A stretch of 64,000 nucleotides of DNA from Candidatus Woesebacteria bacterium RIFCSPLOWO2_01_FULL_39_23 (lineage in GTDB: Bacteria > Patescibacteriota > Microgenomatia > UBA8517): assembly GCA_001793095.1 (NCBI GenBank), contig MGHG01000007.1, positions 1,306 through 65,305 on the forward strand, written 5' to 3'. Positions within the stretch are counted from its first letter, which is position 1. Every line of letters begins with the position of its first letter. The notes under the pieces are model-generated. The model did no database searches and was not told the DNA's origin. It worked only from the letters and a program-made list of their open reading frames with translations. Shown here piece after piece: positions 1-24,620 of this stretch. A program made the position numbers and the translations under genes.

Positions 1-633
1 AACTCTGACTTTTTTTGCTAACCCGAGTTTTGTTGCAATTTCTACAATTTCAGAAACTACATCAGAGAGATTAACTATATCTTTTTTCACCTTTGCGCTC
101 TCGGCTTCGCTCCAGGCAAGATCAAGAATATTTTTCAAGGTAGTTGTGATCCTATTGTTATCTGAAAGTACTTCAGCAAGTACTTTTTTATACTCCTCGT
201 TGCTCCTTTCTTTAGTGAGAGCTATTTCGATATTACTTCGCTGCGTTGCCAGAGGAGTTTTGAGTTCGTGTGCGACATCACCTATAAATTGTCTTTCCCT
301 TTTAAAGGCTTGCAATAACCTATCTAGAAGTTGATTAAAGGAGAAAGCGAGTTCGCCAATTTCATCTTCACTTTCAATGTCAGTAACTTTTTCATTTAGG
401 TTTTTGCTTGTTATTGTCTTTATTTTCGAAGAAAGTTTAGATAATCCGTCGGTCATTTTGCGAACAATAAAAAAACCTTCAAGAGCAAGAAATATTAAAA
501 GAATGGTAAAAAAAATATTGCGATAGGGTAAAGTGTAAATATGAACCGCAAAGTAGAAAAAAGCGGTAACGGTAATAAGTGAGGTTATATACCAAAAAAA
601 GAGTTTTCCTCGGAGACTTTTTATCGGCTTCAT
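1..633 (-). CDS. Sensor histidine kinase, CopS-like; N-terminal part only, 3' end runs off the window
   Basis: Minus-strand ORF starts at ATG 633..631, 3 nt after the regulator stop. It translates to MKPIKSLRGKLFFWY..., with two TM segments and an H-box FIGDVAHELKTPLAT (rc of about 250-300). The frame stays open to position 1. Confidence 0.8.
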   Translation of the reverse strand, partial: MKPIKSLRGKLFFWYITSLITVTAFFYFAVHIYTLPYRNIFFTILLIFLALEGFFIVRKMTDGLSKLSSKIKTITSKNLNEKVTDIESEDEIGELAFSFNQLLDRLLQAFKRERQFIGDVAHELKTPLATQRSNIEIALTKERSNEEYKKVLAEVLSDNNRITTTLKNILDLAWSEAESAKVKKDIVNLSDVVSEIVEIATKLGLAKKVRV

Positions 634-636
634 AAG

Positions 637-1314
637 CTAATCAGATTCTACACTAATTTTGTAACCCACACCGTGTATGGTATGAATAAGTTTTACTTTT
701 GAACCCTTGTCAACTTTACGTCTCAAAGAAGCAACAAATACATCAACAATATTACTCATTCCATCAAAATTGTAATCCCAGACGTGCTCTATAATCATTG
801 TTCTTGTTACTACCTCATCTTTATGTCGAAGTAAAAGCTCCATTACTGAAAACTCTTTTGGAGTTAATGAAATTGGTTTACCACTCCGCTGCACTTTGTG
901 TTTTATCGGGTCTAATTCCAAATCTGAAATTTTTAAAGTCGGGGAGGGTTCTTGCTTACTTCTTCGAATTAAGGCGTGAATTCGTGAGCGAAGTTCCAGA
1001 AAAGAAAATGGCTTGGTCATATAATCATCTGCTCCAGAATCCAAACCTGCTACTTTATCTTCAACCTCGCTTTTTGCAGTAAGCATTAAAACAGGTGATC
1101 TTATATTTTTAGTTCTTAGCTCGCGGCAAATTGTTACACCATCGACCTTAGGGAGCATTATATCAAGCAAGATCAGATCATATTCTTCGGATTCGGCCAA
1201 ATATTGTCCTTCCTCTCCATCGTAAGCAGCATCAACCGCAAAGCCTTCCTCAGTTAGACCCTTTTTGATGATGTTGGCAAGCCTACGCTCATCTTCAACG
1301 ACCAATATTCGCAT
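637..1314 (-). CDS. OmpR-family two-component response regulator (receiver plus winged-helix), CopR-like
   Basis: MRILVVEDE...LILLDIMLP...LMLTA receiver motifs and a C-terminal GVGYKI winged helix. It is translationally coupled to the kinase. Confidence 0.9.
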   Translation of the reverse strand: MRILVVEDERRLANIIKKGLTEEGFAVDAAYDGEEGQYLAESEEYDLILLDIMLPKVDGVTICRELRTKNIRSPVLMLTAKSEVEDKVAGLDSGADDYMTKPFSFLELRSRIHALIRRSKQEPSPTLKISDLELDPIKHKVQRSGKPISLTPKEFSVMELLLRHKDEVVTRTMIIEHVWDYNFDGMSNIVDVFVASLRRKVDKGSKVKLIHTIHGVGYKISVESD

Positions 1315-1376
1315 TATCCCAATATTATATCAGTAATCATGAAGAAATTATGAAGATTTACAAAGTTTAGGTGTAT

Positions 1377-1508
1377 TTACTTTTTCTGTATCTGTTTCCA
1401 AAGCCAGATTCCTAAAAGTATAAGATCGATTAAAACAACGATTCCGAAAAGACTTCCAAAAACTCCAGCTCCTCCCATCATCCCCCCATATTGACCAAAA
1501 CCCATCAT
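1377..1508 (-). CDS. 43-aa Met/Gly-rich small membrane peptide (MMGFGQYGGMMGGAGVFGSLFGIVVLIDLILLGIWLWKQIQKK)
   Basis: Hand translation of the minus strand. GGGTGA lies about 8 nt upstream of a double ATG, with one C-terminal TM helix. It is not in the ORF track, which stops at 60 aa. Confidence 0.45.
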   Translation of the reverse strand: MMGFGQYGGMMGGAGVFGSLFGIVVLIDLILLGIWLWKQIQKK

Positions 1509-1543
1509 AAACATTCACCCCCCTTAAAATATAATATCAGTAT

Positions 1544-2191
1544 TCAGTTATAAGGGGCAAGTCGTGCTCTTACCACAAGCCTTCTCGGTTTTCTTGGATC
1601 TCCAGGAGGAACACAGGTAATTAGGCTAATGTAGGATCCATCGCTATTCTGCTCTAGAACTTGGATATCTTTTGGCAGCACCTCAAACTTTGTTTCAACA
1701 ACGTATTTGTAGGTAATTCCATCGTAGTTAACAATTATCTCGTCTCCTTCTTGGAATTTTGGCAGTGTCGAAAAAATTGTTTTGTAGTTTGTTGGACTGA
1801 AAAAGAGGGGTAAAGCAGAGTGACCGAATATTACACTGTTACCTGTTTTTCCAGGAACTGCAGTTCCTGGATAGTGAATAAGCGATTTTGCCAGGTCTTC
1901 GCCTCCGATAGTAACTGTTGCCGACTCAACACCCAGTTTTGGAATAGACATTGTGTAATATTTCACTTCTGTGGAGGTAAAATCTTCTTCTCTTGCACCC
2001 CCTTCAAACCAAGAACTCGCTTTAGTAGTTGCAGCTTTTGAATTAAAAGAATCATCATCTACTAATGGTGAAATAAGTGTAGGCGGAGCGGTCAACTCGT
2101 AAGAAATTATTGGAAAAACGGTAGCGAAAAGTATTGTTGAGCCTGATATAAAATTTATAGCGGCAAGAATTCGTTTAACAGTCTTACTCAT
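1544..2191 (-). CDS. Sortase family transpeptidase
   Basis: N-terminal TM anchor, a conserved His (IFGHSALP) and the catalytic TLITC motif (SLITCVPPG) followed by Arg. Confidence 0.75.
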   Translation of the reverse strand: MSKTVKRILAAINFISGSTILFATVFPIISYELTAPPTLISPLVDDDSFNSKAATTKASSWFEGGAREEDFTSTEVKYYTMSIPKLGVESATVTIGGEDLAKSLIHYPGTAVPGKTGNSVIFGHSALPLFFSPTNYKTIFSTLPKFQEGDEIIVNYDGITYKYVVETKFEVLPKDIQVLEQNSDGSYISLITCVPPGDPRKPRRLVVRARLAPYN

Positions 2192-2238
2192 TAACTACCA
2201 CTTTAATGAGTGATGAGTTAAGAAGTTATGAAGACAAA

Positions 2239-2439
2239 CTATTTTTGTAAAGCTTCAGCTTGTTTAGGTGGACATTTTATATCTGCATAAGAGCAAAATA
2301 CGCAACAATCGCCTTCTTTTGGTTTTAGCATTTCTCCACAATGAATACACTTATAAAAATGCTGGCAGGCATCAGTAGGCATCGTGGCTTCCTGCTTTTT
2401 CCCACATTTGGGACAAGTTAATATTGCTTCAGTTTTCAT
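2239..2439 (-). CDS. GDCCVxC-type Cys-rich zinc-ribbon mini-protein
   Basis: CPKCG...C..HFYKCIHCG...KEGDCCVFCSYADIKCPP. The GDCCVFCSY motif is typical of small metal-resistance-locus proteins. Confidence 0.7.
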   Translation of the reverse strand: MKTEAILTCPKCGKKQEATMPTDACQHFYKCIHCGEMLKPKEGDCCVFCSYADIKCPPKQAEALQK

Positions 2440-2457
2440 ATTGTGTCCTTACCTCTC

Positions 2458-2580
2458 TTATTTCTCTTCTTTACTTTCCTCCGGTACTAAATCCATTCCA
2501 CACTTCGGACAACTTCCTGGTTTATCCGACTTAACTTCCGGGTGCATTGGACATGTATATTTTTGTTTCTTTTCCTCCAC
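2458..2580 (-). CDS. 40-aa heavy-metal-binding-domain (CPMHPEV...CPxCGM) mini-protein
   Basis: Hand translation [43 protein letters not shown] start with GGAGGTGA 6 nt upstream. This is the CPMHP HMBD motif seen at the N-termini of CopA/CusB-type proteins. It is not in the ORF track. Confidence 0.6.
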
Positions 2581-2616
2581 AGGCTATCACCTCCTTTAAC
2601 CAAACTTTGTCGTTCA

Positions 2617-3033
2617 TTAATACCCCCAATCTTTTTGCCACTCCCGCATCATTTCAATCTCATCAGTTTGGGCGGCAATAATATCATCGGCCATTTGTTT
2701 GATCTCATCGTGCAAGGCAGCTGTTTTAGCTTGTTGGGCCATATCTATTGCCCCTTGATGGTGAACAATCATTGCTTCCATAAAGGCTTTATCAAAATCA
2801 TCACCCGTTTTGCCTTCCATAGACTCCATCATTTCCTCCATACTTGATGCTGTTCCCATCATCATTGATCCAACCGTATCTTCTTCTTGCTCAATCATAT
2901 TAAATCTTGCATTCATTCCCATCATCCGCATCATACCTGTGTTGTTGGCATTAACAGCATTTGAAGCAAAGAGCATTGTCAAAACAATCCCTGATAATAA
3001 ACCTATGATTCCATAAAGATATTCTTTTTGCAA
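2617..3033 (-). CDS. DUF305-family Met/His-rich metal-binding protein (CopM-like), membrane-anchored
   Basis: N-terminal TM, many Met runs (MMRMMGM, SMMMGTASSMEEMMESMEG) and the DUF305 helix motifs AFMEAMIVHHQGAIDMA and DEIEMMREW. Confidence 0.75.
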   Translation of the reverse strand: MQKEYLYGIIGLLSGIVLTMLFASNAVNANNTGMMRMMGMNARFNMIEQEEDTVGSMMMGTASSMEEMMESMEGKTGDDFDKAFMEAMIVHHQGAIDMAQQAKTAALHDEIKQMADDIIAAQTDEIEMMREWQKDWGY

Positions 3034-3069
3034 AAAATTTCACCTCCTTTCAAAAAACTTTGTTTAATT

Positions 3070-3591
3070 TTACTTTCCTTCAATGAATTGCACTAAGGCA
3101 TTTTTGTCAAGGTTATCAAATGTCTGAATTTTTCCCATCCTTGTTATCGCAATCTTTTTACTCATGTTTGAAAAAGGTGCAACATATACAAACTCGGAAT
3201 ATTTGTTTGCAATTTCTGCAAGTTTTTCTTTAAGACCGGGTTCGCATTCAAAGTCCTCGCAGTTGTAATTGATAATCACTCCAGGAGGTCCTTTTCCATC
3301 CGAATGCTCCAGCATGTGCTTTTGGACGGATAGGGACATTGGTTCATCCATAACGTGCGATGAGGGATTTTGTTCTATATGACCGGCCATGTCAGTAGGA
3401 GGTAAAATTTCTCTGTTTGTTGACCAATAATAAATGCCACCAATAAGGAGTACTGCAATAATTAAATCAATACTCCAATTACGAATTCTACCTATTAAAC
3501 TACTTTTTGATACATCTTGCGCTTTCAATGCTCTTATTTTTTTCTTGCGTTCTCTTTTTGGTAGTTCATTCCATTCTTCTGGATATTCCAT
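3070..3591 (-). CDS. Membrane-anchored extracytoplasmic protein with a His/Met-rich stretch and an NCEDFEC Cys pair (DUF3105-like)
   Basis: Lys-rich N-terminus, one TM, then HIEQNPSSHVMDEPM...KHMLEH and NYNCEDFECEP. The family assignment is tentative. Confidence 0.55.
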   Translation of the reverse strand: MEYPEEWNELPKRERKKKIRALKAQDVSKSSLIGRIRNWSIDLIIAVLLIGGIYYWSTNREILPPTDMAGHIEQNPSSHVMDEPMSLSVQKHMLEHSDGKGPPGVIINYNCEDFECEPGLKEKLAEIANKYSEFVYVAPFSNMSKKIAITRMGKIQTFDNLDKNALVQFIEGK

Positions 3592-3594
3592 ACT

Positions 3595-4116
3595 TCACCT
3601 CCTTCTACTTATTTTTATATTACATATTCCTAGAACCCTTTTAGACGTGTAGTAAAGCGTTAAAAGCATAATGATAATTGAAAGTAAGAGTATCATTTGT
3701 CTGTATTTCAGCAAAAGCAACACCCCTCCCAAACCTAAAAATCCAAAAATAGATCCCACACAGGAAGCGCAAGACGCAGTGGGACCAAAAATTGAACCCA
3801 ACATTCCAGACAAAGTACTAAAACTACTACGTCCAACTGTTGCTGTACTTAGAGAATTTTTTAACTCATTTCTAATAACAAAAATATTCATTGTTAAAGA
3901 GAGGGAGGTAAGGCTAGAGAGTAAGACAAGTAAAAACCAATCTTTCAGAGTAAAAATGGAAATTTGAAAAGAAAAAGTATTACCTGGAATTTGCCTGACA
4001 GGAATATAAATAAAAAACCAAAGAGCTAGAATTGACAAAGCAAAGAAGGTGATCAAAAAAATTTTCTCTTTAAAAACATTTTTCACCGCAAGAATAACCA
4101 ATTGAATATAATGCAT
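3595..4116 (-). CDS. Polytopic membrane protein with an intramembrane CASC (CxxC) motif
   Basis: Four or five hydrophobic segments and GPTASCASCVGSIFGFLGLGG. It sits 6 nt downstream of the DsbA-like gene. It is not recognisably DsbB or VKOR. Confidence 0.55.
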   Translation of the reverse strand: MHYIQLVILAVKNVFKEKIFLITFFALSILALWFFIYIPVRQIPGNTFSFQISIFTLKDWFLLVLLSSLTSLSLTMNIFVIRNELKNSLSTATVGRSSFSTLSGMLGSIFGPTASCASCVGSIFGFLGLGGVLLLLKYRQMILLLSIIIMLLTLYYTSKRVLGICNIKISRRR

Positions 4117-4122
4117 GTTTTA

Positions 4123-4905
4123 TCATGATTCTTTGAGCATGTTGTCTATCTCCGTTTTAAAGTTTTCGAATGGTAATGCTCCGGGAATTAATTTAGTTTT
4201 GCCTGTTTTTGTATCAAGCAGTATATTTCCGGGTGTTCCTGTTACACCGGCTTTTGCACCACTTTGGAAATCGCTTTCTACATGAGCTGCCGTCTTGCCA
4301 CTATCAAGACACGTCTTGAACGCACTTTGATTAAGGCCGACCTCACCTGCCAATTTGGGTAAATCATCCAGGTTCAAACCGTTATTGGAAGGGGTAACCT
4401 CAAAGATTTTATCGGTCAATTTCCAGAAACCATCATTACCCGCCAGTTCATATGCACACTCGGTAGCCTCAGCCTCTTTATCTGCTTTTTGATGGATTTG
4501 GTCTAATGGAAAATGCCTATAAACCCAAGCAACCTGACCTTTATATTCATCAACTATTTGTTTAGCAGTTGGATGAAATCTCTTGCAGAATGGGCATTCC
4601 AAGTCTGAATATTCAATTAGAAGCATCCTTGCATTCTTATCGCCTCTTACATGATCGTCGTTTCTCAACTTATCAACTTGGTCAGCATTACCGAAGGAAG
4701 GCTGAACTCCTCCTGCAGCTGGTTGTCCTCCTTGAGCACCTCCGGCGGCTCCAGCTTGTGTTCCGGCGATACGTGTGGTTCCACCACCTTCCAAGTTTTT
4801 GACTTTCTGCCAAAGCATTCCTACTGCAAAAGCAAGTCCAATTGACGCAACAAGAAGAATTGGAACTAATTTTTCAAGAAGATTACTCTTAGACTTTAAT
4901 ATCAT
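4123..4905 (-). CDS. DsbA-like thiol:disulfide oxidoreductase (thioredoxin fold, CPFC active site), membrane-anchored
   Basis: LIEYSDLECPFCKRFHP, with an N-terminal TM and a Gly/Ala/Gln-rich linker. The track start at 4932 is TTG. The ATG at 4905 (MILKSKSN...) is the more likely start. Confidence 0.8.
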   Translation of the reverse strand: MILKSKSNLLEKLVPILLVASIGLAFAVGMLWQKVKNLEGGGTTRIAGTQAGAAGGAQGGQPAAGGVQPSFGNADQVDKLRNDDHVRGDKNARMLLIEYSDLECPFCKRFHPTAKQIVDEYKGQVAWVYRHFPLDQIHQKADKEAEATECAYELAGNDGFWKLTDKIFEVTPSNNGLNLDDLPKLAGEVGLNQSAFKTCLDSGKTAAHVESDFQSGAKAGVTGTPGNILLDTKTGKTKLIPGALPFENFKTEIDNMLKES

Positions 4906-4912
4906 AGATATA

Positions 4913-4925
4913 CTACGAAGTGTAG
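4913..4925 (-). promoter_or_regulatory. Candidate BlaI/CopY-type operator copy (CTACGAAGTGTAG) just upstream of the dsbA-like start
   Basis: Same 13-mer (1 mismatch) as at 6250..6262. In both places TTCGTAGTATAT precedes the ATG on the coding strand. Confidence 0.45.
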
Positions 4926-4960
4926 TAGACAATAGTAAAGGTTGTCAATAAGTAAAAGGG

Positions 4961-5911
4961 TTAGTCAACGTTATTATTAAAAGAGGCGAATGTTGACTGA
5001 AATGCGGGGGTAATGTAAGAGCTTTGGTTAATATTATTTGTTGGGCAGTGTGTAGAACAGAGGTTATCCTCACAATTTGAAAGGTCTGAATTACCCATCG
5101 CCTGAATAGTATGAGTATCTCCTGGAAACTTGAAAAGGAAAAGACCAGCTAGAATGATTACCACAAAAACTAAAAAGTTAATCCTTTTGATTTTGTAGTC
5201 GGTTCTTCTTGAAAAGTTTGGGTAAATTTTGAAACGATTTTGAGAACTTACCGTTTCAAGTGCTAAATTCAGATGTCTTGTGGTCTTTTGTTGATTAGAA
5301 ACAAAAAGATCTGCTTCCTTCTCTAATACAGTTCTCATTTTCCTTGTTAAATCTCTTAAAACAGGCAGCATTAGTAGTGATGAAGATAAAATTTCCCCGA
5401 CAATAAGTAATAGTGGATGTCGATTTTTTAAATGGTAATATTCATGAAGTGTTACTGCTTCAAGCTGATTCTGATTTAGTTTTTCTATTAAGCTGGTCGA
5501 AATAACTATTTTTGGTGAAAACCAATCTATTGTAAAAGCATAAACATCTACCTCTTCTACAATAATAATTAAATCTTTTCGGATACCGTTTCTTTCTAGA
5601 ATAAATTTAAGTTTTTGAGGTAAAGAATAAATTTGTTTTTGCAAAAGTACCTCTAATTTTCTTTTTGTTTTAATACATGAAAGTAAAGTTTTTAGAAATA
5701 GTCCTAATGTAATCATTAAAACAATAGCTGTGAGAATAAATCCTACATAATGGGCTCCGGTTGAGAAAAAGCTCGAAGCAATAACTTTGCAAGTCTCTCG
5801 GAAATGTTCGAAGGTTAGACCCGAGTATCTTTTAAAGAGAGTAAAAAGAGAAACAACTGAGAAAGTAAAAACTAACAAAATGCTTAGGAAATAACTTATT
5901 TCTTTTTTCAT
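4961..5911 (-). CDS. BlaR1/MecR1-type M56 zinc metallopeptidase with a short Cys-rich extracytoplasmic tail instead of a penicillin-binding sensor domain
   Basis: Three N-terminal TMs, HEXXH (TLHEYYHLKNRHP), a later TM, then a roughly 50-aa tail containing NCEDNLCSTHCP. Confidence 0.8.
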   Translation of the reverse strand: MKKEISYFLSILLVFTFSVVSLFTLFKRYSGLTFEHFRETCKVIASSFFSTGAHYVGFILTAIVLMITLGLFLKTLLSCIKTKRKLEVLLQKQIYSLPQKLKFILERNGIRKDLIIIVEEVDVYAFTIDWFSPKIVISTSLIEKLNQNQLEAVTLHEYYHLKNRHPLLLIVGEILSSSLLMLPVLRDLTRKMRTVLEKEADLFVSNQQKTTRHLNLALETVSSQNRFKIYPNFSRRTDYKIKRINFLVFVVIILAGLFLFKFPGDTHTIQAMGNSDLSNCEDNLCSTHCPTNNINQSSYITPAFQSTFASFNNNVD

Positions 5912-5919
5912 ACAATCTC

Positions 5920-6246
5920 TTACTTGTGTCGTTTAAGTTCATCTGTAAATGCAGTTACCGCTTCGTGTCCGTATTGGTCAACTAAAGAGTTAACAATTTT
6001 TTTAACTATCCCTTTTGCGGTTTGCTCTTTGGTTTTTTTAGGTGAATATACATATGCCTTACCTTCCATCTTTCTTGCTAAAAAGCCTTTCTCGGTCAAA
6101 CGTGTCATTATTGTCATTACTGTTGTATAAGCAATTTTGCGTTCCTTTTGAAGACATTGATGGATATCCGAAACTGAAGCATTTTTCTCTTTCCACAGAC
6201 AATCCATTACTTCTTGCTCAAGCGGTCCTAAGTTATAGCTAGTCAT
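5920..6246 (-). CDS. BlaI/MecI/CopY-family winged-helix transcriptional repressor
   Basis: 108 aa. YTTVMTIMTRLTEKGFLARKMEGKAYVYSP winged helix, 8 nt upstream of the M56 gene. There is no C-terminal CxC metal motif. Confidence 0.85.
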   Translation of the reverse strand: MTSYNLGPLEQEVMDCLWKEKNASVSDIHQCLQKERKIAYTTVMTIMTRLTEKGFLARKMEGKAYVYSPKKTKEQTAKGIVKKIVNSLVDQYGHEAVTAFTDELKRHK

Positions 6247-6249
6247 ATA

Positions 6250-6262
6250 CTACGAATTGTAG
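6250..6262 (-). promoter_or_regulatory. Candidate BlaI/CopY-type operator copy (CTACGAATTGTAG), 4 nt upstream of the blaI-like ATG
   Basis: TAC-N-GTA dyad ends reminiscent of cop/bla boxes (TACAnnTGTA). It is duplicated at 4913. Confidence 0.45.
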
Positions 6263-6290
6263 GAGATTTAGAAGAAACTATCAATACCAT

Positions 6291-6884
6291 TCAGTAACTA
6301 ATCAGTCGTATTAAAAAAGGTACTATTCTAATAGTCGGCAACTTATAGTTATAGGCAACTTTGTAGTAGATACTTGTGTATTTGTTTACTTGATCGATTA
6401 GTTTTGTCTCAAATTCCTTATCATTCTCAATTATACTTAAGGAATTTCCAGCTACTCTTTCGATCGCTGGATAAAGCAACTGCTTTTGATAATCTTCCGC
6501 CGCAGTAGAATATTGGTCTAGTTTTTCACCTGAAAGTTTCGACAGCTCACTTTCGATTTCCAGATAAATTTTTATGGATGATGGAAGTCTTCTATATGGA
6601 GAGTCTGGTTCTATATTAAACAGGACAAGATCTCTAGCTTGTTTATATTCAAAAACCAAAACATTTGACAACTTTTTGATTACCTTTACCGATTTCTTGC
6701 CTTTGTATTTTTGGTTGTAAGTGGCATCTCCCTGATAGGAATAAATCAAACCGATAATACAGATAAGCTTACCTTTATTTTTCTTAAATCCGAAAAGGTC
6801 GAAAAACTTCTTGAAACTTATTCCCAACTTAAAGCGAGGGTTGAACCGATGTCCTACGTTGCAGCACAAAAGAAGCTCAAACAA
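6291..6884 (-). CDS. Hypothetical protein
   Basis: 197-aa ORF with no recognisable motifs. It overlaps small opposite-strand ORFs, so its start is uncertain. Confidence 0.35.
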   Translation of the reverse strand: MFELLLCCNVGHRFNPRFKLGISFKKFFDLFGFKKNKGKLICIIGLIYSYQGDATYNQKYKGKKSVKVIKKLSNVLVFEYKQARDLVLFNIEPDSPYRRLPSSIKIYLEIESELSKLSGEKLDQYSTAAEDYQKQLLYPAIERVAGNSLSIIENDKEFETKLIDQVNKYTSIYYKVAYNYKLPTIRIVPFLIRLISY

Positions 6885-6912
6885 ATGCTTTATTTATCGG
6901 GTAAAAAATAAA

Positions 6913-7092
6913 ATGCAACTATCCAAAGAGGCTATAGACGAATTCGTGGTAATCTGGAAAAAGGAGTATGGTAAATCAATAAGCGAAACTCTGGCTACGG
7001 TTTATGCCAATAAACTAATCAACCTTTTTACTGCTATTTACAGACCAATAACAAATGTGAATAAAATAAATCTTGAAGAAGATAAGGGTTAG
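6913..7092 (+). CDS. Hypothetical 59-aa protein upstream of the recombinase (possible accessory or directionality factor)
   Basis: ATG at 6913 (MQLSKEAIDEFVVIWKKEYGKSI...). Position only. Confidence 0.3.
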   Translation: MQLSKEAIDEFVVIWKKEYGKSISETLATVYANKLINLFTAIYRPITNVNKINLEEDKG

Positions 7093-7106
7093 ATATATGA
7101 TTATAT

Positions 7107-7186
7107 TGAACTCAAAAATACCTTTCGGCTTTTTTAATGGCCGTCTCAGACAAGTCCGAAAGGGTTTGAGTTCAACTGGGACGGCC
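7107..7186. other. Nested imperfect palindrome, a candidate recombinase att/recombination site
   Basis: ttgaactcaaa (7107-17) pairs with tttgagttcaa (7164-74). cctttcgg (7121-28) pairs with ccgaaagg (7156-63). ggccgtc (7139-45) pairs with gacggcc (7180-86). It lies 10-90 nt upstream of the recombinase start. Confidence 0.45.
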
Positions 7187-7195
7187 ATTTAAGTT

Positions 7196-8887
7196 ATGGA
7201 AAACAAACTAATATACGTCCAGTATTCAAGAAAATCATCAGAGTCTAGAGAAAAACAGGCATTATCTATTGATGAACAAAAAGAAGAGTGTGTAAAACTT
7301 GAAAAATTATTGGACTTGAACATCCCCTACAAATTAGAAGAATCCCGTTCCGCATACAAACCAGATAATAGACCTGAATTTGATAAGCTGATTTCATTAA
7401 TAGAAGCTGGAAAAGTAAATGCCATACTAACCTGGAAGCCTGATAGGCTTTGCCGTAATCCAAAAGAAGGTGGTTATTTACTCCAATTACTACAAGGTGG
7501 TGTCTTAAAAGAGATTCGGTGTGCTGATGGTGAAACTTATACTCAAGATTCAGACCATTTAATACTCCAAATTCATTTTGGCATGGCAAACCAATACTCA
7601 AGAAATTTAAGCAAGAATGTAAAACGCGGGAACAGCTATAAGTTCTTAAATAACAAACAATGGCTTGGTCCCGCTAAACCAGGGTACTTGAATGCTCAAG
7701 AAGGTAAAGATAAGACAATAGTTGTCGATGAAGAACGTTATCCGATAATTGAAAAGGCTATTAGGTTGATTCTCTCTGGAACTCATACTCCGATGGAAGC
7801 TCTAAATGTGTTGAATAAAAAATTTGGATATAGGAGTCGGAAAACAAAATGCCAAGGTGGTAAACCAATGCATAAAAGTGGTTGGTATCGCTATCTGAGT
7901 GACCCGTATCTTTATGGTTTAATGAAGAGGAAAGAAGGAGAAGTTATGGGTGATTTCAAACCGATGTTATCTAAACCAGAATTTGACAGGTTGCAAATTA
8001 GGTTGGGTAGAAGAGGCACCAGAATTTCCAAGCACGAGATACCCTATCGAGATGTGCTCAAGTGTGGAAGCTGCGGTGGCACTGTATGTGGTGACGATAA
8101 ATGGCAAGTATATTGTCCTGCCTGTAAGGAGAAGTTTCATAAGGGGAAGAATACAACCGAATGTAAATACTGCCACACTCCAATTGAACGGATGAAAAAT
8201 CCTACAATCCTTCATTACGTTTATCTGTTCTGTACAAAAAATAAAAACCCGAATTGTACTCAAAAGATAATCTCGGTTAAAGATTTTGAGAAACTTGTTG
8301 ATGATGAGCTCCTAAAGTTTACAATTCCAGATTCTTTTCGTGATTGGGCTATCAAACACCTGAATAATTGCAACACGAAAGAGGTGGGAGATAGAGAAAT
8401 TGTCAGAACAAACCTAAAAACTGCTTATGATGACTGTGTAAAAAAGCTAGATAGCTTACTTAGTCTCAAAATCAGCCCACAGAATATCGATGGTTCGGTA
8501 ATATCTGATGAAGAGTACAACACCAAACGAAAAACGCTCCTTGATGAAAAGACCAGTCTACTGGAACAGATAAATGGAGTAGATAAGAGGCAGAATGATT
8601 GGATGGAATTATCCGAAAGAACCTTTGATTTTGCAGTTTACGCACGGCATTGGTTGGAACATGGAGACGCTAAACAAAAAAGCTCAATTCTTGCAGCTCT
8701 CGGTTCGAACATAAGGATAATGGACAAGAAACTGCTGATAACACGGCATAAACAGTATTTCTTAATAGAAAAAGGGGTAGGAGAAATTAAACAATTAGCA
8801 AGACAATTCGAACCTGGTAAAACACCCGTATTATCGGAGCATTTACTCTCTTTTGAGCCTATTCGTTCTGCTTGGCTGGGAGACTAG
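7196..8887 (+). mobile_element. Large serine recombinase (resolvase/invertase catalytic domain, recombinase domain, zinc ribbon)
   Basis: N-terminal YVQYSRKSSESREKQALSIDEQ with catalytic Ser, then the TWKPDRLCRN region, then Cys clusters (CGSCGG...C..C, C.YC...C). 563 aa. Confidence 0.9.
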
Positions 8888-8947
8888 GATTCGAACCTAG
8901 ATATACAGATCCAGAATCTGTAGTCCTACCGTTAGACGATCTCCCAA
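8876..8947 (-). tRNA. tRNA-Gln (anticodon CUG)
   Basis: Cloverleaf read on the minus strand: TGGGAGA / D-arm GTCT..GGAC / anticodon stem ACAGA-TTCTGGA-TCTGT / T-arm CTAGG-TTCGAAT-CCTAG / TCTCCCA. Its 3' end overlaps the recombinase stop codon. Confidence 0.85.
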
Positions 8948-9017
8948 TACAAAACTCTGATTAAATTCGATCTTTTAGGAATCTACGCCCGAAGCCTGTT
9001 TTAAAATATTTTTCTCT
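8929..9017. repeat. Direct repeat copy 1: the last 18 codons of the GIY-YIG gene, an intergenic spacer and the first 19 nt of tRNA-Gln
   Basis: About 80% identical to 9283..9371. Seen by eye alignment. Confidence 0.7.
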
Positions 9018-9197
9018 TTTGATTGCTTTATTCTTATCTAAACAAGCTTCATAATAAACCAATTTGATTGGCAACCGAAATTTAGTTGAACTAACTAGTC
9101 CTAATTTGTGTTTATTTACTCTTTTCTCAAGATCATTACTCCATCCAACATAGCGTTTACCATCTCTTTTACTTAACAGCACATAAGTATAATACAT
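8961..9197 (-). CDS. GIY-YIG nuclease-family small protein (YhbQ/UPF0213-like)
   Basis: MYYTYVLLSKRDGKRYVGWSNDLEKRVNKH...LVYYE...KREKYFK, the classic GIY-YIG core. 78 aa. Confidence 0.8.
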   Translation of the reverse strand: MYYTYVLLSKRDGKRYVGWSNDLEKRVNKHKLGLVSSTKFRLPIKLVYYEACLDKNKAIKREKYFKTGFGRRFLKDRI

Positions 9198-9282
9198 AAA
9201 CGCTTCCTACCCGCCCGCCATCGCAAGCCCTGGCCGCCTCGCACTGCTCAGTAAGCAGGTTGGCTCAGGCGTTGCGGGCAGG

Positions 9283-9371
9283 CCATTAGACGATCTCCCA
9301 ATACAAAACTCTGGCTAAATTCGATTTTTCAAAAATCTTCTTCCAAAACCCGTCTTAAAATATTTTTCTCT
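9283..9371. repeat. Direct repeat copy 2: a GIY-YIG 3' remnant (encodes REKYFKTGFGRRFLKNRI*), spacer and a 19-nt tRNA-Gln 5' fragment
   Basis: The minus-strand translation of the remnant keeps the same peptide as copy 1 with mostly synonymous changes (one D to N). The tRNA fragment TTGGGAGATCGTCTAATGG diverges after nt 19. Confidence 0.7.
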
Positions 9372-9399
9372 TTGAATTATACCAAAAATGAGGCTGGAG

Positions 9400-10050
9400 T
9401 TACATCGAGGCTTCGAGTTCCAAGTTGGTCAAATTTTTTACTATAAATTTTTGACTTTTCCGAAAGATTAACCCTTTGCTTTGTAGTTTTTCTATGGAGA
9501 TACTTGCAGTTTCTCGTGTAATACCCGCCAAATTTGCGATATCCTGATGCGTAAGGGGAATATCAATGAGAACATTTTTATTTTTGAAACTCTTCCCGAA
9601 TCTTTTAGCAGAAACTATAAATGCTGAGGCGACCCGTTTATATGCGTTACCGTAAAGTAGCTGTTGGGTAGTTGATAAAAGTCCATCCATGCCGACCAAA
9701 AGGCGCCTAGTCAAATCATACAAAACATCCGGGTTGTCGTTGATGAATTTTAGTGCATCTCCTCTTGTGGCTTTAAAAACTTCAGTTGAAGTCATAGCCT
9801 GATAAAAGTAAGCATTATCCGAATCAGCGATTGCCCATAACATTGGGAAGAATGCACCTTGTTTAAAAATATTAACAGTCAGCTCTGACCCGTTTTCGAA
9901 AATAGACGCCATTTTTACGTAGCCGTTTATCATATAAAAAACTCCAGGCGGTTCTTCCTCGGCTCTTATCAATATTTCACCTCGTTTATATGACTGAAGA
10001 ACGTGTTTAGAGAAAAAACCCAGTAATTTTTGATTAATATCTTTATCCAT
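9400..10050 (-). CDS. Crp/Fnr-family transcriptional regulator (cNMP-binding domain plus HTH)
   Basis: 216 aa. C-terminal HTH LTHQDIANLAGITRETASISIEKL with an N-terminal beta-roll. Confidence 0.85.
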   Translation of the reverse strand: MDKDINQKLLGFFSKHVLQSYKRGEILIRAEEEPPGVFYMINGYVKMASIFENGSELTVNIFKQGAFFPMLWAIADSDNAYFYQAMTSTEVFKATRGDALKFINDNPDVLYDLTRRLLVGMDGLLSTTQQLLYGNAYKRVASAFIVSAKRFGKSFKNKNVLIDIPLTHQDIANLAGITRETASISIEKLQSKGLIFRKSQKFIVKNLTNLELEASM

Positions 10051-10251
10051 TTTAGTTAAGTTAGAAATCTAACTGAATCACTATTTTGCCTATTTTAAAA
10101 TGCTTTTATTAATAATGCAAAGCGTTCTAATCCATGAGATCAGATTATATTAGGTTGGGCCACAATTTGATAGTCTAGGACACCAAATGTGGTCACGTGA
10201 GATGTCTACGATGAAATCGGGACTATCTCACCGTGAGAGGTGGTGATTTTT

Positions 10252-10635
10252 ATGATTAAAATATTAGAGAGTTTAACATTATTTAGTGAAAATGCGAAGC
10301 AATTGGCGCATTTTTATCAGGATAAAGTCGGTTTAAAAATTACTGCCGAGGCGGTTTTCGGCGAAAATGACGAAGAATACTATGAACTAGAAGCCGGTGA
10401 CGGCACCCCCATCTATATCATTGATCACTCGGAAATCAAAGGAAAAAACAAAGACCCAAAAAGATTTCTTTTTAACCTGGAAGTTGACGATATTAAAAAA
10501 GCGTTTAAGAAATTAAAAAAAGCGGGGGTGAAAAAAATTGCCGACGTCTATCATATGCAGGAGTACGGCTATATAGCGACGTTTGCGGATGTGGACGGTA
10601 ATTATTTTCAGATTGTTCAGATACGTCCAAGTTAA
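10252..10635 (+). CDS. VOC/glyoxalase-bleomycin-resistance family protein
   Basis: About 127 aa with a glyoxalase-like fold pattern. The track start at 10240 is GTG. ATG 10252 is preceded by GAGAGGTGGTGA. Confidence 0.75.
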   Translation: MIKILESLTLFSENAKQLAHFYQDKVGLKITAEAVFGENDEEYYELEAGDGTPIYIIDHSEIKGKNKDPKRFLFNLEVDDIKKAFKKLKKAGVKKIADVYHMQEYGYIATFADVDGNYFQIVQIRPS

Positions 10636-24404: not shown

Positions 24405-24620
24405 TTGTTTAAAGAATGTATGGCATTTAATATATTGAAGAAAAAGCAAAATTCCCAAAAAGCTACTGAAGGTAGTAGGAGCGTTATTATCCTAAGAGAC
24501 GAATATGGTACGATTATTTCTAAGAGAGAATTAAAACCAGGTGATTTAATTGATGGAGAACTCGTTGCTAAAGGGTTACAGCAAGGTATTAGTGTTATTA
24601 TTAAGGAAAGAGGTAAATAA
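24405..24620 (+). CDS. Hypothetical small protein
   Basis: 71-aa ORF that abuts serS. No motifs. Confidence 0.35.
   Translation: MFKECMAFNILKKKQNSQKATEGSRSVIILRDEYGTIISKRELKPGDLIDGELVAKGLQQGISVIIKERGK

Follow-up and report, generated by a model that had tools for sequence, protein, structure and literature searches.

A probable copper and thiol-disulfide stress island in Candidatus Woesebacteria with conserved BlaI-type and CopR-like DNA sites

Copper islands and CopRS two-component systems have already been described, and so has one copper switch of the BlaI/BlaR1 type, the PetR/PetP (PetRP) system of Synechocystis sp. PCC 6803. PetR and PetP form a BlaI/BlaR1-type pair without the penicillin sensor; the repressor is degraded when copper is present, and cyanobacterial PetR recognises GAC-N5-GTC (PetRP preprint). 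Here we analysed a 64,000-nucleotide stretch of DNA (hereafter the window) from an uncultivated groundwater bacterium, Candidatus Woesebacteria (Microgenomates). Positions 1-6284 of the window probably represent the upstream third of a modular island of ~15 kb for copper (thiophilic-metal) and thiol-disulfide stress. The island begins with genes for a BlaI-like repressor and a BlaR1-like membrane protease, which may form another switch of this type, and includes a two-component system that resembles CopRS.

The likeness to PetRP lies in the adjacent repressor and protease, the HExxH motif, the lack of a penicillin-binding domain, the link to copper and the form of the operator dyad, xAC-N5-GTx. 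The two systems differ in their targets, because the PetRP regulon (four genes) is that of plastocyanin and cytochrome c6, whereas the genes under the switch here would be those of envelope thiol and copper defence together with copA. They also differ in the protease: the candidate ligands of PetP are two Met residues in the loop between helices 2 and 3, whereas those of the BlaR1-like protein are a Cys/His group in loop 1 and the C-terminal tail, and the helix layout is not that of PetP.

Other described systems share further parts with the island. In Corynebacterium glutamicum, CopR binds TGAAGATTTgaTGAAGATTT in gel shifts, and its regulon includes a thioredoxin-like gene (tlpA), a copper ATPase and secreted proteins of no known function (PMC3140484). 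The regulator encoded here is likewise of the OmpR type and, like CopR, would be autoregulated; read on the opposite strand, the C. glutamicum site TGAAGATTTnnTGAAGATTT agrees at 16/18 positions with the site AAATCTTCAtaATTTCTTCA at the promoter of the regulator gene. On the other hand, CopR has a single genomic site whereas seven promoter-proximal sites occur here within one island, the kinase has only ~8 residues outside the membrane, and regulator and kinase fall below the cut-offs of TIGR01387 and TIGR01386. As in cyanobacterial copMRS, a CopM/DUF305 homologue and a heavy-metal-type two-component system are encoded on one strand of one locus; they differ from copMRS in that the two are not adjacent, lie behind different DNA elements and are not co-inherited, and in that the kinase is sensorless. 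CopM also has two matched stretches, whereas the window protein has one DUF305 unit. With the Scs systems of Salmonella, Proteus and Caulobacter the island shares a DsbA-like CxxC protein and a putative membrane thiol partner in a copper-tolerance locus, with CcdA/DsbD-type and TlpA-like proteins encoded nearby. Neither ScsB nor ScsA was found here, however, and the candidate partners are CcdA and CASC, the latter a member of an unrelated family of small four-helix proteins. Finally, as for CopZ and CopA, the island encodes a small soluble copy of the N-terminal metal-binding domain of its pump, but the fold is HMBD (PF19335) and not the HMA ferredoxin-like fold.

Conserved core and variable cargo of the island

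A sequence-only reading of the first pieces of the window had described twelve co-directional, tightly packed genes with several overlaps within positions 1-4932. All twelve genes are real and all lie on the minus strand, with blaI the first and the histidine kinase gene the last in the order of transcription. Only ten of them lie within 1-4932, and blaR1 and blaI occupy 4961-6246. In the order of transcription the intergenic gaps are 8 (blaI to the blaR1-like gene), 55, 6, 3, 36, 36, 18, 47, 29, 62 and 3 nt, which agrees with the reported range of 3-62 nt, but none of the claimed overlaps was found. Every domain call made at that stage was borne out by profile searches (Pfam, NCBIfam). The start of dsbA, which had been placed at TTG 4932, was moved to ATG 4905 because a conserved operator fills 4911-4927, and gene callers likewise give a protein of 260 amino acids (aa).

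The array is cut by the window edge and continues co-directionally for >10 kb on the source contig. The genes past the window start encode the rest of the kinase (332 aa in total), a 72-aa DUF2933-like protein, CcdA (DsbD_TM), a TlpA-like redoxin, an ICMT-like methyltransferase, a 339-aa Cys-rich protein, a CsoR-family regulator, an ATP-cone/Mrr-like protein, a CopA ATPase with an N-terminal HMBD, proteins of 140 and 151 aa, an SRPBCC protein and a YHS protein. The earlier reading of the array as a metal/thiol island gains from this context, namely from the HMBD-type CopA ATPase, the CsoR-family regulator, the YHS protein, CcdA and the TlpA-like redoxin. The proteins are the same as those of Candidatus Woesebacteria bacterium RIFCSPLOWO2_01_FULL_39_23, and identical copies are also encoded on many metagenome contigs; matching assemblies from aquifer samples include GCA_001792575.1 and GCA_001792065.1.

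We compared the array with a set of 22 loci that encode CASC or the island-type sortase (333 kb; labelled L001 for the source contig, L007 and so on). The order blaI-blaR1-dsbA-CASC, often followed by a DUF3105 gene, was found in about 14 of the 22 loci and always among copper genes, which are those for CopA, CsoR, multicopper oxidase, cupredoxin, HMBD peptides and YHS proteins. It stands beside genes for CopA, multicopper oxidase, cupredoxin and CsoR in L007, L008, L010, L011, L015 and L020-27. The presence of DUF305, HMBD, GDCCVxC, the sortase, the Met/Gly peptide and the two-component system varies between loci. Because the core order recurs while the other genes come and go, the array is a conserved core (blaI-blaR1-dsbA-CASC-DUF3105) with shuffled cargo, and the recurrence of this order in more than 15 independent loci means that the arrangement is not a product of chance. 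As a side note on these loci, several GTDB representative assemblies with the island (L021, L024-L028, L034) are titled 'uncultured Gammaproteobacteria bacterium', which is probably a placeholder or a mislabel.

Table 1 Genes and DNA elements at positions 1-6284 of the window
Feature	Position	Strand	Evidence and remarks
Histidine kinase, first 211 of 332 aa, cut by the window	1..633	-	Two membrane helices, HAMP, HisKA
OmpR-family response regulator, heavy-metal (CopR/CusR) type, 225 aa	637..1314	-	Response_reg and Trans_reg_C
Putative promoter of the regulator gene: AAATCTTCAtaATTTCTTCA (~1339-1358; box core 1340-1355), 9 nt, TATAAT	1320..1358	-	Perfect CTTCA-N6-CTTMA
Met/Gly-rich single-helix membrane peptide, 45 aa	1377..1514	-	Extended -10-like promoter at 1531-1560
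Sortase, 215 aa, N-terminal anchor	1544..2191	-	PF04203, 94.1 bits; His (FGHS), Cys (LITC) and Arg (VRAR) present
Regulator-type direct repeat CTTCATAACTTCTTAA	2218..2233	-	26 nt upstream of the sortase start
GDCCVxC Cys-rich protein, 66 aa, no signal peptide	2239..2439	-	NF041374, 99.6 bits (cut-off 40); motif GDCCVFC
Free-standing HMBD mini-protein, 40 aa, CPMHP...CPKCGM, predicted cytoplasmic	2458..2580	-	PF19335, 62.9 bits (cut-off 23.6)
CopM-like DUF305 protein, 138 aa	2617..3033	-	PF03713, 63.7 bits; N-terminal anchor, Met-rich linker, one DUF305 unit
DUF3105-like membrane-anchored protein, 173 aa, motif NYNCEDFEC	3070..3591	-	PF11303, 20.3 bits, below the cut-off of 25
CASC protein, 173 aa, four membrane helices	3595..4116	-	CxxC at 116-119 in the third helix, C-terminal Cys165
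Membrane-anchored DsbA-like thiol-disulfide oxidoreductase, 260 aa, CPFC active site	4123..4905	-	PF13462, 76.7 bits; PF01323, 54.3 bits
Promoter-like site TTGACA-18-TACACT and perfect operator TACTAC-ACTTC-GTAGTA (4911-4927)	4911..4948	-	5 nt before the dsbA ATG
BlaR1/PetP-like membrane zinc protease, 316 aa	4961..5911	-	PF01435 (Peptidase_M48), 35.3 bits (cut-off 20.3)
BlaI/CopY/PetR-family winged-helix repressor, 108 aa	5920..6246	-	PF03965 (Penicillinase_R), 96.6 bits (cut-off 22.6)
Promoter-like site TTGATA-17-TACAAT and BlaI-type operator TCCTACAATTCGTAGTA (6248-6264)	6248..6284	-	Ends 1-2 nt before the blaI ATG

Two families of DNA sites and the units behind them

A 17-bp palindrome, TACTAC-N5-GTAGTA, lies inside a 22-nt repeat whose two copies in the window (4908-4929 and 6245-6266) are 91% identical. 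It overlaps the predicted -10 box before blaI, before dsbA and, outside the window, before the copA unit, where a third copy, a perfect one, precedes the ATP-cone/Mrr-copA unit by 10 nt; all three operators on the source contig are 1-10 nt before a start codon. With up to 2 mismatches allowed, this contig has 3 sites against 0.57 expected, and 3 was reached in 0 of 100 shuffles. The two best minus-strand promoter predictions in window positions 1-9300 coincide with the operators of blaI and dsbA. The genes right behind these two operators lack a Shine-Dalgarno sequence, and several genes internal to the units have GGAGG. Two further operator-like matches, at 24461 and 36313 (2 mismatches each), were set aside as being at chance level. 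An example of the BlaI-type operator DNA is TACTACACTTCGTAGTA.

In about 16 further loci of Microgenomates the palindrome was found in corresponding positions. It precedes blaI in L008, L010, L011, L015, L017, L020-24 and L034, and dsbA in L008, L010, L011, L015 and L020-L027. The 22 loci together hold 29 sites with at most 1 mismatch, nearly all of them just upstream of blaI, dsbA or csoR, and no site was found in the six loci (~90 kb) in which neither blaI nor blaR1 was detectable. In L007 and L025 the operator precedes the csoR-copA unit, and L007 has a weaker site (2 mismatches) at a distance of 96 nt upstream of a gene for a multicopper oxidase.

Members of the BlaI family regulate their own genes and bind to dyads. 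Because of this, and because the operator core TAC-N5-GTA parallels the PetR core GAC-N5-GTC, we assigned the operator to the BlaI-like protein, which is the probable binder of TACTAC-N5-GTAGTA. The repressor has no C-terminal CxCx4CxC copper motif, its sequence ending with ...TAFTDELKRHK. A CopY/TcrY repressor was considered and rejected on this ground and on the score of TIGR02698 (61.3 bits against a cut-off of 121.95).

The second family of sites is a direct repeat, for which AAATCTTCATAATTTCTTCA is an example of the regulator-type box DNA. The perfect form CTTCA-N6-CTTMA occurs only twice in the 64-kb window, before the regulator gene (1340-1355) and before the sortase gene (2218-2233). 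On the source contig, CTTCAT-N5-CTTCAT with up to 2 mismatches was found 13 times against 2.9 expected, and 13 was reached in 0 of 100 shuffles. Seven boxes on the coding strand stand ~25-65 nt before the genes for the sortase, the regulator, the 72-aa protein, CcdA, the ICMT-like methyltransferase, the 339-aa protein and CsoR. L014 and L015 keep the box before three genes, those for the sortase, the regulator and CcdA, and their sortase site is identical to that of the window. In L007 it is kept before the genes for the regulator and the multicopper oxidase, and in L021 before the regulator gene. L017, an island without the two-component system, has no box. For the sortase gene, the support for a regulator box consists of the 16-nt core and its conservation in L014. 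The two-component system is most readily taken as one of the heavy-metal kind, with this repeat as its box.

Because such DNA elements stand inside the array, before blaI, dsbA, the sortase gene and the regulator gene, positions 1-6284 appear to hold at least four transcription units and not one operon. The units would be blaI-blaR1; dsbA through GDCCVxC (six genes, three of them with strong ribosome-binding sites); the sortase gene, probably with the Met/Gly peptide gene; and the regulator and kinase genes. The first two would lie behind a BlaI-type operator and the last two behind a regulator-type repeat. It had been proposed from the sequence that two regulatory layers govern one array. The two layers have a counterpart in the two families of sites, but the array seems to be divided into at least four units, and a third regulator, of the CsoR family, is encoded outside the window.

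Island proteins and a proposed mechanism

The BlaR1-like protein has HEYYH at residues 156-160 and E197 as catalytic motifs, and four hydrophobic segments are seen in its hydropathy profile (8-26, 49-67, 167-185 and 244-262). Its match to Peptidase_M56 (PF05569) scores 23.7 bits, below the cut-off of 31. It was not classified as BlaR1/MecR1 proper, as it has no penicillin-binding domain and the NCBIfam BlaR1 model is matched at profile positions 110-254 of 585 only. The loop at 27-48 carries H36 and C41, and the C-terminus is a Cys/His tail of ~54 aa with C280, C285, H288 and C289. We aligned 21 sequences, consisting of 18 of 40 relatives and three proteins from related loci, down to 21% identity. 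C41, H156, E157, H160, E197 and C280 were invariant, and H36, C285 and C289 were at least 90% conserved. Because of the positive-inside rule, and because HExxH and E197 must be on the same side of the membrane, the loop and the tail are predicted to lie outside the cell. We infer that the conserved Cys and His residues form an outward-facing module at the place where BlaR1 has its antibiotic sensor. A Cys-rich sensor module unlike that of PetP would bear on how PetP-like proteases sense copper.

The DsbA-like protein carries both Thioredoxin_4 and DSBA domains, and its relatives in the PDB include 4n30, Wolbachia DsbA, Proteus ScsC (E about 1e-10), Salmonella ScsC and BdbD. Its N-terminal anchor (window 4830-4905) is nearly identical to that of the 339-aa Cys-rich protein (14646-14760 on L001), with the common pattern LVPILLV.SIG.A.A.G..WQK..NLE.

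The adjoining CASC protein has no Pfam or NCBIfam match, and sampled members of its family likewise had no Pfam match. An exhaustive profile search gave 396 clusters at 50% identity, all of them small stand-alone proteins. Within the family C116 does not vary, conservation of C119 and C165 is at least 90%, and the consensus ends with a second CxxC. The gene adjoins dsbA in most loci and adjoins the CopA gene directly in distant lineages (L031, L033). CASC is thus a membrane protein family that has not been described before; with ~400 clusters and no Pfam model, and tied to DsbA and CopA, it would bear on the route by which DsbA is re-oxidised or reduced. A separate 140-aa membrane protein with four helices and the motif SCCAHY, encoded together with a 151-aa protein, was repeatedly seen behind CopA (L001 19142-20016; L010, L017, L018), and it aligns weakly (14% identity) to the CASC family around the cysteines.

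In L007 and L010 the place of the DUF3105-like gene is taken by orthologues that do carry PF11303 and that are 30-31% identical to the window protein. A literature search on DUF3105 returned one irrelevant mention.

The DUF305 protein scores 63.4 bits with the NCBIfam CopM model, below its cut-off of 90, and its best solved relative is Synechocystis CopM (PDB 5ffa, E 4.6e-22). The HMBD peptide, which is also encoded in L010, L014-16 and L034, shares 70% identity across 33 aa with the HMBD at the N-terminus of the island CopA. This likeness is like that of CopZ to HMA-type CopA and therefore suggests, by analogy, a cytoplasmic Cu(I) carrier. The GDCCVxC protein is most likely a cytoplasmic soft-metal binder. 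Its gene also occurs in L007 and L018 (the latter a complete genome, CP011214.1), next to a regulator gene or to the CopA gene. Matches were found on 354 plasmid records, and in the two that were inspected the gene comes right after merP or merT, with no annotated merA. We found no literature on 'GDCCVxC'. Free-standing HMBD and GDCCVxC mini-proteins would be new as candidate cytoplasmic Cu(I) carriers.

The kinase helices are at residues 12-30 and 39-57. Because only ~8 residues lie between them and no extracytoplasmic sensor domain is present, the kinase cannot sense metal in the way that CusS and CopS do. A candidate co-sensor, and a speculative one, is the Met/Gly peptide, because L014 also encodes it between sortase and regulator and because in L021 (12264-12830) this helix anchors, at the C-terminus, a Met/His-rich protein of 188 aa that has a signal peptide and is encoded just upstream of the regulator. 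The 45-aa window peptide, for which Pfam and NCBIfam gave no match, may be a shorter version of the L021-type protein.

None of the sortase class models (A-F) reaches its cut-off with the sortase. Its presence in a metal island had been called unexpected, which is a fair remark, but the association is recurrent and not a one-off. All five short (199-215 aa) Woesebacteria sortases examined are in copper/thiol islands (the window, L014-16, L017, L018, L035), where they adjoin the two-component system or CcdA-TlpA, and all three long ones (221-229 aa) are in a neighbourhood of AlaRS, a ~700-aa protein, the sortase, RuvX, YceG and RpoB. The two kinds share all catalytic residues in an alignment. 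We tried to define the island sortases as a clade of their own, but sortases from the same context are no more alike than sortases from different contexts (58-66% identity in either case), and the two kinds were not resolved in a quick neighbour-joining tree. Because L021, a close relative of the window island, has no sortase, the sortase is optional cargo. The interpretation that we prefer, though with low confidence, is that it is a stress-induced spare copy of a copper/oxidation-sensitive cysteine enzyme, co-induced with CcdA-TlpA. A paralogous sortase that recurs in copper islands is a new observation.

From what the sequences show, namely the genes with their domains and the gene order and DNA motifs that are kept between loci, we infer which protein would bind which motif, what the signal would be and what each protein would do. 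In a first circuit, the BlaI-like repressor would sit on the palindrome, over the -10 box, and repress three units: blaI-blaR1, the unit of dsbA, CASC, and the DUF3105-like, DUF305, HMBD and GDCCVxC genes, and the copA unit outside the window. The BlaR1-like zinc protease would release them by cleaving the repressor, as PetP does to PetR with copper, upon a signal read by the outward-facing H36, C41, C280, C285 and C289. In a second circuit, the CopRS-like two-component system would activate promoters with CTTCA-N6-CTTMA at the -35 position. Its targets would be the sortase gene (probably with the Met/Gly peptide gene), its own genes and, outside the window, the 72-aa gene, ccdA-tlpA, the ICMT-like gene, the 339-aa gene and csoR.

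Among the products, the DsbA-like protein and its membrane partner CASC would handle envelope disulfides damaged by copper, in a ScsC-like manner. The CopM-like DUF305 protein would bind copper outside the cell, and the HMBD mini-protein and the GDCCVxC protein would bind Cu(I) inside it. The sortase, whose catalytic cysteine would be vulnerable to metals, would serve as an extra, stress-induced copy. If so, the island would hold a BlaI/BlaR1-type proteolytic switch over copper and thiol defence outside cyanobacteria, for which the case is built on conserved sites in many loci. The two short DNA motifs can also be used as probes for mapping regulons in uncultivated bacteria.

Alternative readings and flanking sequence

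Several observations weigh against a copper and thiol-disulfide island with these two circuits. The pairing of the operator with BlaI and of the repeat with the regulator is drawn entirely from position, co-occurrence and family precedent. The promoter scan as a whole was not enriched (23 found against 27.9 in shuffles), with generic rules that may not be those of the host. The regulator narrowly misses the cut-off of its best model (TIGR01387, 267.9 against 279.2 bits), and the kinase, with TIGR01386 as its best model, reaches 214 of the 292.6 bits needed and matches profile positions 171-450 only. With the CopR consensus in its longer form of 18 bp the sortase box agrees poorly, at ~12/18 positions by eye. 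The DsbA-like protein resembles ScsC no more than it does ordinary DsbA proteins; ScsC structures match it at E 1e-10 to 1e-6, with other DsbA proteins among the matches. For CASC, the structural model is mediocre (pLDDT 66) and matched no known fold. When the island loci and the 64-kb window were scanned for a pattern of C-terminal sorting signals, no substrate for the sortase was found, although the motif of the host may differ. Because GDCCVxC goes with mercury transport genes in Proteobacteria, the metal may be broader than copper. Lastly, in a by-eye alignment the CsoR-family protein seems to lack the canonical His/Cys ligands, with Tyr and Asp in the places of His70 and Cys74 of B. subtilis CsoR, and its effector may not be Cu(I).

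Two details of the genes around copA are recorded here. The CsoR-family regulator (L001 15767-16045) has a Cys-x-Cys (RSCTC), and a GC-rich dyad, GTACCCTCCCCTGGGGGATCTGGTA, precedes its gene. The first gene of the copA unit, right behind the perfect operator, encodes a 279-aa protein with ATP-cone and Mrr_cat domains (L001 16050-16916), which is odd for a pump operon.

One alternative is that the island serves mainly thiol-disulfide stress (oxidative stress or envelope folding), with the cysteines of the BlaR1-like protein sensing redox by disulfides and copper as one of several triggers. The dsbA gene is the first behind its operator, CcdA and a TlpA-like redoxin belong to the island, the four conserved outward-facing cysteines could make two disulfides, and the CASC family has two CxxC motifs, as in a thiol relay. 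However, the same operator stands before the copA unit here, before csoR-copA in L007 and L025 and before the multicopper oxidase gene in L007, and the neighbours are overwhelmingly copper genes. We consider this alternative unlikely.

Starting from the copper and thiol-disulfide reading, one may go further and suppose that Microgenomates run a lineage-specific programme against envelope copper and thiol stress, in which three parts act jointly. First, the BlaR1-type protease may directly sense Cu(I) or thiol damage through its Cys4/His module, which would be a new sensor head. Second, CASC may be a membrane redox relay for DsbA that replaces the quinone-dependent DsbB or VKOR, or DsbD; to our knowledge, Woesebacteria and other Microgenomates have no quinones and no respiratory chain. 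Third, the sensorless kinase may read copper through its Met-rich single-helix partner and turn on the spare sortase, which may keep surface proteins anchored while the cysteine of the housekeeping enzyme is poisoned. That all three parts hold together is rather improbable.

A single co-transcribed operon of the copMRS kind, with the DUF305 protein as the CopM partner of the regulator and kinase, was the arrangement that the sequence-only reading had seen mirrored here. The genes are co-directional with gaps of a few to 62 nt, no convincing intrinsic terminator was found between them, and the DUF305 protein is a true CopM homologue. The regulator gene does not directly follow DUF305 as had been stated, however; four genes intervene, and two regulator-type promoter elements lie between the DUF305 gene, which is behind a BlaI-type operator, and the kinase gene. 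Conserved promoter/operator elements are internal to the array, before dsbA, the sortase gene and the regulator gene, and the kinase has no sensor domain. In addition, DUF305 and the two-component system are not inherited together, as L008 has DUF305 without the two-component system and L014-16 and L021 have the two-component system without DUF305. Because both are shuffled cargo, the term copMRS-like is only loosely true, and an operon of this kind is quite improbable.

Very improbable is a system for mercury or other soft metals, in which CASC would be a Cys-lined importer like MerT or MerC that passes the metal to GDCCVxC and HMBD: in both plasmid contexts inspected GDCCVxC directly follows a mer gene, and the intramembrane-helix CxxC and cytoplasmic C-terminal cysteines of CASC have what we take to be the layout of Mer transporters, but MerR, MerA, MerP and MerB are missing from this island and from all related loci, the enzymes and proteins that do recur are those specific to copper (multicopper oxidase, cupredoxin, the CopM homologue), and the regulator box matches the site of a copper regulator.

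Apart from the copper and thiol-disulfide island itself, some features of the flanking DNA were recorded. Between the recombinase gene described below and blaI there is a 197-aa open reading frame (6291-6884, minus strand) with no Pfam or NCBIfam match, and it was called with 178-197 aa in six loci on public contigs. Directly upstream of the island are a gene for a large serine recombinase (563 aa, 7196-8887, plus strand) and tRNA-Gln(CTG) (8873-8946, minus strand), whose 3' ends overlap by 15 nt. An Rfam search of positions 1-10500 gave tRNA only. We do not claim that the recombinase carried the island, since the L021 island is near the same GSDH/orf246 neighbours without a recombinase. A search for tRNA-derived repeats found only one pair, a direct repeat at 8931-9020 and 9285-9375 with a 40-nt core of 95% identity, which comprises the first 15 nt of tRNA-Gln (minus strand) and the DNA upstream of it. 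Between the two copies are a GIY-YIG gene of 78 aa (9197-8961) and a segment of unusually high GC content (9209-9284), and the whole looks like a small insertion next to the tRNA gene.

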